A stretch of 43,652 bases of DNA from a virus (IMGVR_UViG_2617270938_000005:1-43652), one strand, 5' to 3'. Counted from the first letter of the stretch, positions 25,010 to 27,899 are shown. The notes: generated from the sequence alone by a model not told the origin. A program made the numbers and translations.

Positions 25010-25477
25010 TTACTTCAGGCATTGCGTGGTGATGTATTCCTGCAGCGCCCTCAATGCTGTTTGGTCGCTGACGATTCCGGACCGGATACCGAGAACGTTT
25101 CGTCCAGCAACTGCAGAGAGTTCGACGGTGGCATCATTGCCCATGCTGGCGGCGCCGGTGGTTTGGGTTGCGGCTGACACTGGACACTTGCCTTTGACGA
25201 GCACCCGACCACCATTATCAAGCTTGCGCTGCAGAGCATCATTTTCAGCTTTTGCATCGGCTAACTCCTTCGTGTATTTAGCATCGAGTGCATCAGCATC
25301 ACGCTGGCGCTGCTGCATGTCAGTAATGGTGGCGGTCGCCTGCTTCAGCTCACTGACTTTTTTATCGCGCTGTTCTTTGTAGGCGATGGCGTTATCACGG
25401 TAATGATTAACAGCCCATGACAGGCAAACGATGATGCAGATAACCAGAGCTGAGATAATCGCGGTTACTCTGCTCAT
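25010..25477 (-). CDS. Rz: i-spanin Rz
   Basis: N-terminal TM segment plus coiled-coil periplasmic domain; lambda Rz-like. Confidence 0.85.
25051..25257 (-). CDS. Rz1: o-spanin Rz1 (embedded in Rz)
   Basis: MQKLKMML...VVGCSS lipobox, proline-rich, embedded in alternate frame of Rz. Confidence 0.7.
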
Positions 25478-25950
25478 ACCTCAATCTCTCTGACCGTTCC
25501 GCCAGCCTCTTTGAATTTTGCAATCAGGCTGTCAGCCTTATGCTCGAACTGACCATAACCAGCGCCCGGCAGTGAAGCCCAGATATTGCTGCAACGGTCG
25601 ATAGCCTGACGAATATCACCGCGGTCAATCATCGGTAAAGCGCCACGCTCTTTAATCTGTTGCAGTGCCACAGCGTCCTGGCTTTTCGGAGAGAAGTCTT
25701 TCAGGCCAAGCTGCTTGCGGTAGGCATCCCACCAACGGGAAAGAAGCTGGTAGCGTCCGGCGGCTGTTGATTTGAGTTTGGGGTTTAGCGTGACGAGTTT
25801 GCGAGGGTGATCGGAGTAATCAGTGAATAGCTCTCCGCCAACAATGACGTCATAACCATGATTTCTGGTTTTCTGCCGTCCGTTATCAGTTCCCTCTGAC
25901 CACGCCAGCATATCGAGGAACGCCTTACGTTGATTATTGATTTCCACCAT
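25474..25950 (-). CDS. R: endolysin R (lytic transglycosylase)
   Basis: Near-identical to remembered lambda R sequence. Confidence 0.9.
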
Positions 25951-26257
25951 CTTCTATTCCGGCTTTTTTAGCAGCGAAGCGTTTGATAAGCGAACCAATC
26001 GAGTCAGTACCGATGTAGCCGATGAACACGCTCGTTATATAAGCGAGATTGCTACTTAGTCCGGCGAAGTCGAGAAGGTCACGAATGAACCAGGCGATAA
26101 TGGCGCACATCGTTGCGTCGATTACTGTTTTTGTAAACGCACCGCCATTATATCTGCCGCGAAGGTACGCCATTGCAAACGCAAGGATTGCCCCGATGCC
26201 TTGTTCCTTTGCCGCGAGAATGGCGGCTAACAGGTCATGTTTTTCTGGCATCTTCAT
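25934..26257 (-). CDS. S: holin S
   Basis: [20 protein letters not shown]... dual-start motif; lambda S-like. Confidence 0.9.
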
Positions 26258-26372
26258 GTCTTAGCCCCAATAAGGGGATTTGCTCTATTTATTTAGGAAT
26301 AAGGTCGATTACTGATAGAACAAATCCAGGCTACTGTGTTTAGTAATCAGATTTGTTCGTGACCGATATGCA

Positions 26373-26402
26373 CGGGCAAAACGGCAGGAGGTTGTTAGCG
26401 CG
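26373..26402 (-). terminator. GC-rich hairpin terminator downstream of tRNAs
   Basis: 10-bp stem GGCAGGAGGT/ACCTCCTGCC followed on minus strand by GTTTTG. Confidence 0.5.
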
Positions 26403-26499
26403 ACCTCCTGCCACCCGCTTTCACGAAGATCATGTGTAGAAGGCCGCAGCGTAACTATCACTGATGAATTCAGGATAGCCAGTGGCTACGGCTCAGTTA

Positions 26500-26575
26500 T
26501 GGTGCTGTTTAACGGACTTGAACCGCTACCCATTCGCTTACAAGGCGACCGCTCTACCATTGGAGCTAAAACAGC
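26500..26575 (-). tRNA. tRNA, anticodon UGU (Thr)
   Basis: Manual cloverleaf: acceptor GCTGTTT/AAACAGC, D-stem GCTC/GAGC with GG, anticodon loop CTTGTAA, T-loop TTCAAGT, encoded ACCA 3' end. Confidence 0.65.
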
Positions 26576-26580
26576 ATGTT

Positions 26581-26655
26581 TGGCGGGACAGCGTGGACTC
26601 GAACCACGATAAGAAGGTTAACAGCCTTCCGTAATCACCTTTATACGACTGACCC
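26581..26655 (-). tRNA. tRNA-like, anticodon GUU (Asn), with stem mismatches
   Basis: Anticodon arm GAAGG-CTGTTAA-CCTTC, T-arm CGTGG-TTCGAGT-CCACG, CCA end; one T-T mismatch each in acceptor and D stems. Confidence 0.5.
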
Positions 26656-26659
26656 AAAT

Positions 26660-26700
26660 AAAAAAAGCCACCGTTGCAACTTAAGAGTCACTAACGGCAG
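26660..26700 (-). terminator. candidate tR'-like hairpin plus T7 run downstream of the late promoter
   Basis: Minus strand GCCGTT...AACGGTGGC followed by TTTTTTTATTT. Confidence 0.35.
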
Positions 26701-26711
26701 CTTACCTTCTA

Positions 26712-26741
26712 ATTATGGCTAAATGGATAATTGCATGTCAA
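26712..26741 (-). promoter_or_regulatory. late promoter pR'-like
   Basis: Minus strand TTGACA - 18 nt - CATAAT overlapping the 3' end of Q. Confidence 0.55.
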
Positions 26742-27237
26742 GGCCTTTAACAGCAACATGCTTAACTTTCTCAACACGTTTACGCATTTTGAAAGCATTT
26801 TGCATTGGCTGGTACAAAACAAATAACGACGCTTTCAGGATGTCGTCAATTTCGTTTCTACAGGTTGCCAGTGAAGGTTTTCTCCATCCCTCGCCACCAC
26901 GTCCACACATCTTGCGTGGCTTTGCAGTCGCGTGATAGTAGGATGCAATTGCTCGCTTAGATGAACCATGAGCGTAGTAGCTGAGGAGGATGCCAAAGGC
27001 TTTCTTGTCAATGTACATGACGGAATCGACGACCTGAGAAATCAACATTCCATCATCATCATTACACATTGGCCTTGTCATAACTCTTCCCGGCTCTACG
27101 CTCTCCATGAACTTCGCTATTACGCTGCTCATGCGCTTTTCCAGGCGGCCTGAATAAACCCATGCGCCCCACAGTTCAAGCCATCCATTCAGCCAATCGT
27201 GCTGTTCTTTGGTGAGGTTTAGTTCTCTTATACCCAT
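26719..27237 (-). CDS. Q: antitermination protein Q (phage 21/82-type family)
   Basis: Position upstream of lysis genes; [10 protein letters not shown] motif resembles the WGAW motif of Q82-type antiterminators. Confidence 0.65.
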
Positions 27238-27899
27238 GCGCCTTCTCCCTGTACCTGAATCAATGTGAGGTTTCCGCAGAACACTGCGCCGGTATCGATA
27301 TACATCTGGTTGGCAAATTTGAGTGGTTTCACTGCTGGCGTATGACCAAAGATGAACGTGTCCGCGCCTTTGATTTCTTTCACGATCCCGTCTTGTGAGT
27401 TGCCGATTCGTTCGCGGTTCCAGATTACCTGCTGAGGATCAACTGGCTTTCCAAATTCGTATTCGTTACAAGGATAATCGGCGTGGCAGATGACATATTT
27501 TTTACCTTTGCTCACCAGTTCGATGATTAACGGAAGTTCTTCTGCTTTATGGGCAAGAGCTTTAGCCAGAATCTCTTTGTCGTAATCGAGATTAAAGAAC
27601 CAGCCACCGCCATTAAGCAGCCAGTGATTAACGTTTCCACGCTCTGATAAGCCATCAATCATCATTTGCTCATGGTTTCCACGTACAGCTCTGAACCAGG
27701 GGAATGTGATTAATTCCAGGCATTCAACGTTCTCTGCACCACGATCAACCAAATCGCCCACCGAGATAAGCAGGTCTTTTTTGTTGTCGAATCCAATCGT
27801 ATCCAGTTTGTTCATCAGGTTCGTGTAGCATCCGTGCAGATCGCCAACTACCCAAATATTTCGGTATTTGCTGCCATCAATTCTTTCGTAGATATTCAT
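27228..27899 (-). CDS. ninI: Ser/Thr protein phosphatase (lambda NinI-like)
   Basis: Metallophosphatase motifs GDLHG, GDLVDRG, GNHE. Confidence 0.85.

Follow-up and report, generated by a model that had tools for sequence, protein, structure and literature searches.

The DNA analysed here, IMGVR_UViG_2617270938_000005:1-43652, is a viral sequence of 43,652 nt (the window), and this report concerns positions 26373-26741, where a first-pass annotation had placed a late control region. Very probably, a mosaic lambdoid prophage has its late-gene switch here, and this switch is of the phage 21/Sf6 type. The late control module as such is already known and widely annotated, and the earlier reading of it was essentially right. 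The elements of the switch, in their order on the minus strand, are the following:

26719..27237, minus strand: Q antiterminator gene of the Q21 family, 172 amino acids (open reading frame; Pfam PF06530, 90 bits).
26712..26741, minus strand: late promoter pR', with the -35 box TTGACA (26741..26736), an 18-nt spacer and the -10 box CATAAT (26717..26712); 11 of 12 consensus positions.
26717..26732, minus strand: putative Q-binding element of two 8-bp direct repeats, AATTATCC (26732..26725) and ATTTAGCC (26724..26717), located by alignment to phage 21.
26705, minus strand: predicted transcription start +1 (G), 7 nt past the -10 box and aligned with the annotated late start of phage 21.
26698..26704, minus strand: sigma-dependent pause element TAAGCTG (+2..+8), identical to the annotated element of phage 21; the pause itself is predicted.
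26660..26703, minus strand: intrinsic terminator tR', with stem 26703..26665, core G-C stem 26701..26667 and a T7 run at 26666..26660 (fold and homology).
26581..26655, minus strand: tRNA-Asn (GUU) with G73, encoded CCA and mismatches U4:U69 and U13:U22 (ARAGORN; Rfam, 55.3 bits).
26500..26575, minus strand: tRNA-Thr (UGU) with G1-C72, C2-G71, A73 and encoded CCA (ARAGORN; Rfam, 61.2 bits).

A megablast search with the 1011-bp segment from Q to the holin gene S gave 181 matches among phage records. The Escherichia phage Bas106, HF4s and the Shigella phage Sf6 matched over the full 1011 bp with 97-98% identity (97.3% for Sf6, AF547987), and many Salmonella P22-like phages, including BTP1 and SPN9CC, were about 96% identical to this segment. 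A shorter query of 306 bp (26745..26440), which reaches from pR' to slightly beyond hairpin A of the late leader, matched 1021 of 5426 complete E. coli genomes, i.e. approximately a fifth. On these E. coli matches, the labels of the NCBI pipeline comprise both tRNAs and an 'antiterminator Q family protein', and both tRNAs are labelled in hundreds of genomes.

The curated Sf6 record AF547987 (Casjens et al. 2004) lists a putative late promoter, described there as almost the same as that of phage 21, a qut site and a tR' terminator, together with a tRNA-Asn and a tRNA-Thr 'similar to phage 21' and S107/S105-, R-, Rz- and Rz1-like genes. In the phage 21 record OL657228 (2022), the -35 and -10 boxes, two Q-binding subsites (Yin et al. 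2019), the start site, the sigma-dependent pause element, the terminator (Guo, Kainz and Roberts 1991; PMID 1704887) and both tRNAs are annotated. The curated annotation of homologous DNA thus agrees with the order proposed earlier for the window (Q, pR', tR', two tRNAs and then the holin), which makes its assignment as a late control region credible. The occurrence of Q with two downstream tRNA genes has been published for Sf6, ST64T, PS3, phage 21, SfI and L (PMC3636060, PMC8022706, PMC9119081). From +2 (26704) to the end of the tRNA pair, with the pause element and the terminator included, the window aligned to phage 21 with 98% identity, and the annotation of these elements in phage 21 is based on experiments.

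The promoter had been described as TTGACA-18-CATAAT overlapping the Q stop, and this is what we found: its boxes at 26741..26712 lie over the stop codon TAG at 26721..26719. Its coordinates correspond in the alignment to the annotated pR' of Sf6 and HK75. On either strand of the 43.6-kb window, pR' is the sole match to at least 11 of the 12 consensus positions. Since first-order Markov simulations gave an expectation of 0.58 such matches in the window, the motif alone is not significant, and it is the position of the promoter and its identity to annotated late promoters that count. Starting at +2, the sequence matches phage 21 base for base up to the end of the U-run, the phage 21 terminator (PMID 1704887) included. 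The candidate tR' hairpin with its run of seven T was likewise substantiated, as it folds with a free energy of -20.2 kcal/mol (z = -5.4; none of 200 shuffles was as good) and the equivalent hairpin carries the label tR' in the Sf6 and HK75 records. A simple terminator scan of the minus strand reported neither the tR' hairpin nor hairpin B of the leader, because of the bulge in the tR' stem and of the 10-nt loop and short tract of 4 U in hairpin B.

Q is 85% identical to the Q protein of phage 21 over 162 amino acids and matches the Q21 structures PDB 6JNX and 6P18 (E = 1e-92). Of its earlier assignment to a '21/82 type', the 21 part is supported by these matches, while the 82 part is unsupported and makes the label imprecise. 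By segment, residues 1-93 are almost identical to Q21 and residues 94-162 are divergent, and a tail of 10 amino acids follows. Upstream of +2, the window tracks Sf6 and HK75 rather than phage 21. The two spacer repeats, which are alike at 6 of 8 positions, occupy the same alignment columns as QBEu (ATTGAGCA) and QBEd (AATGAGCA) of phage 21, with another sequence, and may serve as the binding site of Q. Because the repeats co-vary with the divergent C-terminal half of the protein, Q is probably specific for the site in the window. The residue pattern of Q mirrors the mosaic of the promoter, suggesting that Q is a Q21-family protein with Sf6-type DNA specificity. An equivalent divergence of Q was noted for phage L, where a different target specificity was expected (PMC8022706).

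According to the mechanism that we propose, host sigma-70 RNA polymerase would initiate at pR' (+1 = 26705) and pause at the adjacent sigma-dependent pause element. Without Q, the polymerase would halt at tR' (U-run 26666..26660) and an RNA of approximately 40-46 nt would be released. Accumulated Q would bind both 8-bp repeats of the spacer, load onto the paused polymerase and narrow the RNA exit channel, thereby blocking formation of the terminator hairpin as in the Q21 structures. The read-through polymerase would then traverse a structured leader with hairpins A and B and enter S, R, Rz/Rz1 and approximately 24 kb of virion genes. Host tRNA-processing enzymes would excise the tRNAs from this late transcript, so that they would be supplied mainly in late expression. 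The gap between the U-run and the first tRNA amounts to 4 nt, and a promoter scan of the minus strand from the interior of Q to S revealed no other promoter-like site; for both reasons, expression of the tRNAs is expected to depend on read-through of tR', i.e. on Q.

ARAGORN detected exactly two tRNA genes in the whole window, and Rfam detected nothing else there. Both candidates of the first-pass annotation, two minus-strand tRNAs with the hand-folded anticodons UGU and GUU for which an ARAGORN run had been suggested, were accepted by this program, and their Rfam scores exceed the RF00005 gathering threshold of 29 bits. Compared with phage 21, tRNA-Asn differs in one D-loop base, and tRNA-Thr is identical at 73 of 76 positions. 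The differences in tRNA-Thr concern pair 5:68, which is U-A in the window and G-C in phage 21 and Sf6, and a single base at position 26, which lies between the D stem and the anticodon stem. In E. coli, the identity set for Asn consists of GUU and G73, and that for Thr of G1-C72, C2-G71, G35 and U36. The synthetase identity elements for both amino acids are all present in the window tRNAs: tRNA-Asn, identical to E. coli asnT at 44 of 76 positions, keeps GUU, G73 and CCA, and tRNA-Thr, identical to thrU at 49 of 76, keeps G1-C72, C2-G71, UGU and A73.

Two T-T mismatches had been seen in the acceptor and D stems of tRNA-Asn, and the Rfam alignment places them at 4:69 and 13:22. They had led to the suggestion that this gene may be degenerate. 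A decaying or non-functional relic would fit these U-U pairs and also the fold of the bare sequence, whose minimum-energy structure differs from a cloverleaf and does not surpass that of shuffles (z = -1.5), but we consider such a relic very improbable, starting with the Rfam score, which is nearly twice the threshold. A pattern search for tRNA-Asn in IMG/VR, in which positions 3-7 and 65-69 were left free, retrieved at least 119 contig stretches; the pattern fixed most other positions, which limits the meaning of invariance at these. Fourteen distinct variants were found among approximately 125 contigs listed, and the following results refer to the matches listed. U4:U69 was kept in approximately 120 of approximately 125 copies, and the rare variants were U-C, U-G and G-U, among them changes that restore a G-U wobble. 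U13:U22, which belongs to the positions for which the limit of the pattern applies, was invariant. A non-Watson-Crick pair at 13:22 is common in tRNAs.

At pairs 6:67, 7:66 and 28:42 of tRNA-Asn, both sides changed and the positions remained paired. In total, 91% of the cells in the covariation analysis were paired, a score that was reached by none of 500 shuffles, and the slid controls were paired in 36-53%. Compensatory pairs were also observed among the homologues of tRNA-Thr (5:68, 3:70 and 6:67). With the mismatches kept as a conserved state, compensation in other stem pairs and GUU, G73 and CCA retained, tRNA-Asn is, as judged from these sequence comparisons, under structural selection and not decaying.

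Among the matches listed, 99 of 126 sampled copies of the tRNA cassette consisted of Asn and Thr. The other copies contained Asn alone or added Phe(gaa), Arg(tct) or Gly(tcc), and Leu(taa) is present in phage L. The cassette occurred behind 21-type, Sf6-type and lambda-type tR' hairpins, and in these matches the junction was always ...TTTTTTATTT followed directly by GGGTCAG. This constant junction behind three types of tR' suggests that the tRNAs form a self-contained mobile insert with its left boundary at the terminator U-run, and the presence of the cassette behind several terminator types documents recombination at this U-run.

Some further observations concern the distribution of the cassette. 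In the Stx2c phages Nil2 and 1717, the 21-type tR' precedes a tRNA-Asn fragment that comprises only the first approximately 24 nt of the gene, and in Nil2 an insertion-sequence-like element is annotated at this place. P1 and an N4-like phage are unrelated coliphages with a tRNA-Asn(GUU) followed by a tRNA-Thr(UGU). Their tRNA-Thr genes are identical to that of the window at 58-60 of 76 positions, compared with the 49 for E. coli thrU. Pair 31:39 is C-G in all phage Thr copies examined and A-U in the host. A relic tRNA at lambda 44781-44941, suggested by the octamer AACAGCAC that equals the 3' end of tRNA-Thr, was not retained as a candidate, as only this octamer was seen and no tRNA or Rfam search of lambda was made.

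Several points weigh against the reading of this region as a functional late switch of the phage 21/Sf6 type. The promoter and the putative Q-binding repeats are unlike those of phage 21, and the homology to this phage starts only at +2. The start site, the pause and termination at the locus in the window rest on homology, and charging and use of the tRNAs are putative for all members of the cassette. Furthermore, tRNA-Asn(GUU) does not belong to the rare tRNAs and Asn codons (44-46 per 1000 in window genes) show no clear enrichment, so that codon supplementation explains tRNA-Asn poorly. The comparison with codon usage that had been proposed earlier gave a weak and non-discriminating result: ACA is moderately enriched, Asn codons are not clearly so. 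Per 1000 codons, ACA amounts to 12.5 in the late genes and 13.2 in the early genes of the window, and its share of the Thr codons is 19% in late and 31% in early genes. For SfI, an ACA frequency of 17.3 per 1000 was reported vs 7.1 in the host, and no rationale was found for tRNA-Asn (PMC3636060).

A role other than codon supplementation might be deduced from studies on the PARIS nuclease AriB. Its main targets are the Lys(UUU), Thr(UGU) and Asn(GUU) tRNAs (Belukhina et al., PMC12409363). A change of U39 abolishes cleavage by AriB, and the T5 versions of the three tRNAs neutralise PARIS (PMC12409363). The cassette could then serve counter-defence by providing nuclease-resistant copies against anticodon-stem nucleases such as AriB, an explanation that we regard as unlikely. 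Both window tRNAs are without U39 and differ from the host at positions 39 and 41, near the AriB cut site between 40 and 41: positions 36-41 read UAAGCG in tRNA-Thr (host UAAUCA) and UAACCU in tRNA-Asn (host UAAUCC). However, as the identity to the host copy is only 58-64%, a difference at position 39 is probable by chance. G39 was present in all five phage Thr(UGU) genes examined and the tandem of Asn and then Thr occurs in P1 and the N4-like phage too, but the tRNA-Asn of P1 keeps UAAUCA. Counter-defence would account for the presence of the non-rare tRNA-Asn, which the authors of the SfI study called unclear (PMC3636060); the other cassette members (Phe, Arg-UCU, Gly-UCC and Leu-UAA), on the other hand, suit the supply of rare or A/U-rich codons. 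Moreover, a tRNA-Lys was found neither in the window by ARAGORN nor in any cassette variant sampled, although tRNA-Lys(UUU) is the main target of AriB and was needed for escape in the T5 work (PMC12409363). We found no paper that links lambdoid tRNAs to PARIS.

In its general form, this proposal would be that Q-gated Asn(GUU) and Thr(UGU) tRNAs are resistant spares that would allow late translation to be completed in temperate lambdoid, P1 and N4-like coliphages after loss of the host counterparts to an AriB/PARIS-like Toprim nuclease, and that G39/C39 and U4:U69 are determinants of evasion rather than products of drift or codon adaptation. We likewise give this proposal a low probability. The AriB-target finding of 2025 gives a testable rationale both for the U4:U69 state conserved in tRNA-Asn and for the combination of Asn with Thr.

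Downstream of the tRNAs, the late switch continues with the leader of the lysis genes, which completes the 461-bp intergenic stretch between Q and S. The following features belong to this part:

26443..26492, minus strand: hairpin A, a stem-loop of approximately 20 bp directly 3' of tRNA-Thr (leader fold, z = -6.4).
26356..26427, minus strand: hairpin B, a 7+6+10-bp helix (fold; lambda/P22 homology).
25934..26257, minus strand: lambda-type holin/antiholin gene S, the first late protein gene (open reading frame; Pfam PF05106; within the stretch 97.7% identical to lambda from 44942).

Homology to lambda extends from window position 26502 (lambda 44942) onward and includes both hairpins. A mosaic boundary is located at approximately 26428, and the leader beyond it is common to many phages, with P22, ES18 and SE16 at approximately 73% identity. 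Hairpin A is common to phage 21 (98% identical) and lambda (44945-45000), where its flanks differ, and a Klebsiella prophage variant contains a compensatory exchange of C-G to U-A. It is without annotation in the records examined and may be a processing or stability element.

In the apex stem of hairpin B, GGCAGGAGGT (26412..26403) and ACCTCCTGCC (26392..26383) form a perfect 10-bp helix with the 10-nt loop CGCGCTAACA. The stem is followed by G-UUUU-GCCCG (UUUU = 26381..26378), and the extended element folds with -28.2 kcal/mol (z = -3.6). Hairpin B corresponds to lambda 45030-45069, approximately 250 bp downstream of the lambda tR'; its identification with the lambda tR' was rejected, as the alignment places the latter at 44720-44780 and without a counterpart in the window. 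In an alignment of six leaders of the lambda and P22 types, the loop GCGCTAACA does not vary, compensatory changes occur at pairs 5 and 10 of the stem in P22 and ES18, and the middle tier of the helix contains one more compensatory pair. The P22-type homologues (P22, ES18 and SE16) keep hairpin B, with UGAUCUG replacing the U-run. Among 149 copies, the central pair is standard in 43 and the other nine pairs are formed in 78-100% (78% for the loop-closing pair 10 and 92-100% for the others).

The central pair 5 (26408/26387) is hypervariable on both sides in the 149 copies (A.C 51, G.A 23, U.C 18, A.A 13, and 43 paired). The variable sites coincide with third-codon positions of an open reading frame of 50 amino acids (26461..26309). 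A coding function of this frame was considered and discarded: entropy at its third positions is approximately threefold higher, but lambda has no start codon, the P22 type has a frameshift and SE16 has an upstream stop.

A 10-bp GC hairpin had been interpreted as a second terminator before S. The hairpin is real and conserved, but its role as a terminator is doubtful. As a second intrinsic terminator, hairpin B would catch polymerases that leak past tR' and keep them from the lysis genes. The very stable stem followed by G-UUUU and the position between the tRNAs and S are consistent with this function, and phage L has an unrelated hairpin with a U-run annotated as a terminator at the equivalent relative position. 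Tandem terminators in the lambda late leader were reportedly described by Luk and Szybalski in 1983. However, the U-tract consists of only 4 U, which is below the criterion of the terminator scan, is tied up in a bulge of a longer conserved helix and is not conserved with the hairpin; P22-type leaders keep the stem and its invariant loop with UGAUCUG instead. Because the P22 type lacks the U-run and the central pair is mostly mismatched, a canonical terminator role is doubtful, and the lambda, Sf6 and HK75 records carry no terminator annotation for hairpin B. We consider this function possible at best.

Alternatively, hairpins A and B could be RNA-processing or stability elements, e.g. RNase III sites, which would divide the transcript into the tRNA precursor and the lysis mRNA and define the 5' end of the latter. 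Both are long irregular helices of approximately 20-23 bp, the size required by RNase III. The two compensatory pairs and the invariant loop of hairpin B between lambda- and P22-type leaders, and the compensatory change in hairpin A, also speak for this reading. This covariation is thin, since it comes from six sequences, and the frequent mismatch at pair 5 is left unexplained. RNase III sites in lambda late RNA in vivo are the subject of Daniels et al. (1988), according to the title of that paper. We tentatively entertain this explanation, at somewhat less than even probability. Taken together, hairpin B may act in the lambda type as a weak tandem terminator, or it may have an RNA-processing or structural role.

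Additional structures were observed in the S leader, at 26350-26358, 26318-26327 and 26276-26285 on the minus strand. Here, GAACAAAUC and GGAUUUGUUC form a conserved hairpin, and GGAUUUGUUC may alternatively pair with GAGCAAAUCC, which adjoins the known stem-loop before the S start, CCCCUUAUUGGGG. This stem-loop covaries with CCUCACGGUCGUGAGG of P22. The three blocks are invariant between the lambda and P22 types, which hints at alternative structures controlling translation of the holin. The lambda/P22 holin leader thus holds conserved long helices, for which termination, RNase III processing and translation control are candidate roles.

The genes on both sides of the control region were called as open reading frames in the following order:

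27899..27228, 27237..26719, 26257..25934, 25950..25474 and 25477..25010, minus strand, 5' to 3': NinI-like phosphatase, Q, S, R and Rz.

The combination of lambda-type S/R/Rz genes with a Q protein of the Q21 family, which had been pointed out earlier, is therefore present, the S/R/Rz cassette lying within the stretch that is 97.7% identical to lambda from 26502. The virion block (1-24952, minus strand) shares 92-95% identity with Klebsiella prophages and Wanchaivirus PDP110P2. Its annotations include baseplate J-like and XkdK-like proteins, which sets it apart from the morphogenesis modules of lambda and P22. In the window, late control of the Q21/Sf6 type, the lysis genes of lambda and a contractile-tail-like structural set are thus joined into a mosaic.

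Among known systems, lambda has its general logic in common with the window, i.e. a constitutive promoter followed by a sigma-dependent pause and a terminator that Q allows the polymerase to pass, and then S/R/Rz. The lambda Q protein, however, belongs to a family unrelated to that of the window, the terminated RNA of lambda is 194 nt long compared with approximately 45 nt here, and lambda is without tRNAs between tR' and the leader. In HK75, Q, pR' and tR' are as in the window, but tRNAs are absent and lambda sequence follows the U-run. Conversely, in some IMG/VR contigs a lambda-type tR' directly precedes the same tRNA cassette.

In Stx phages, with the order pR', StxS small RNA, tR', ileZ-argN-argO and stx, tRNAs are located between tR' and the first late protein genes as in the window, although the tRNAs themselves differ. 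A short terminated pR' RNA is made in lysogens of these phages, and a separate promoter has been mapped between tR' and the tRNAs (PMC7547250). Stx phages thus have an own promoter for the tRNAs, whereas the window has only 4 nt between tR' and the first tRNA. With the tRNA-Lys/Thr/Asn variants of T5, the window shares the anticodons UGU and GUU but not tRNA-Lys; its phage is temperate with Q-gated expression, and resistance of its tRNAs is putative.

Phage 21 has the order and spacing of late control elements that are found in the window, and hairpin A follows the tRNAs in both. In the spacer, phage 21 carries ATTGAGCA and AATGAGCA with the -10 box AACACT, compared with AATTATCC, ATTTAGCC and CATAAT in the window, and the C-terminal half of the window Q is divergent and the protein 10 amino acids longer. 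Downstream, phage 21 encodes the pinholin S21 and a signal-arrest-release (SAR) endolysin instead of lambda S/R/Rz. Sf6, together with Bas106, HF4s and BTP1, has effectively the same module as the window, with Q, pR', tR', both tRNAs, the leader and S in common. The point differences between Sf6 and the window are one repeat base, one D-loop base of tRNA-Asn and pair 5:68 of tRNA-Thr. The region is a textbook late switch as described in GenBank for Sf6 and phage 21, and as an annotation it matters little; compared with Sf6, the module of the window is joined to different, contractile-tail-like structural genes.

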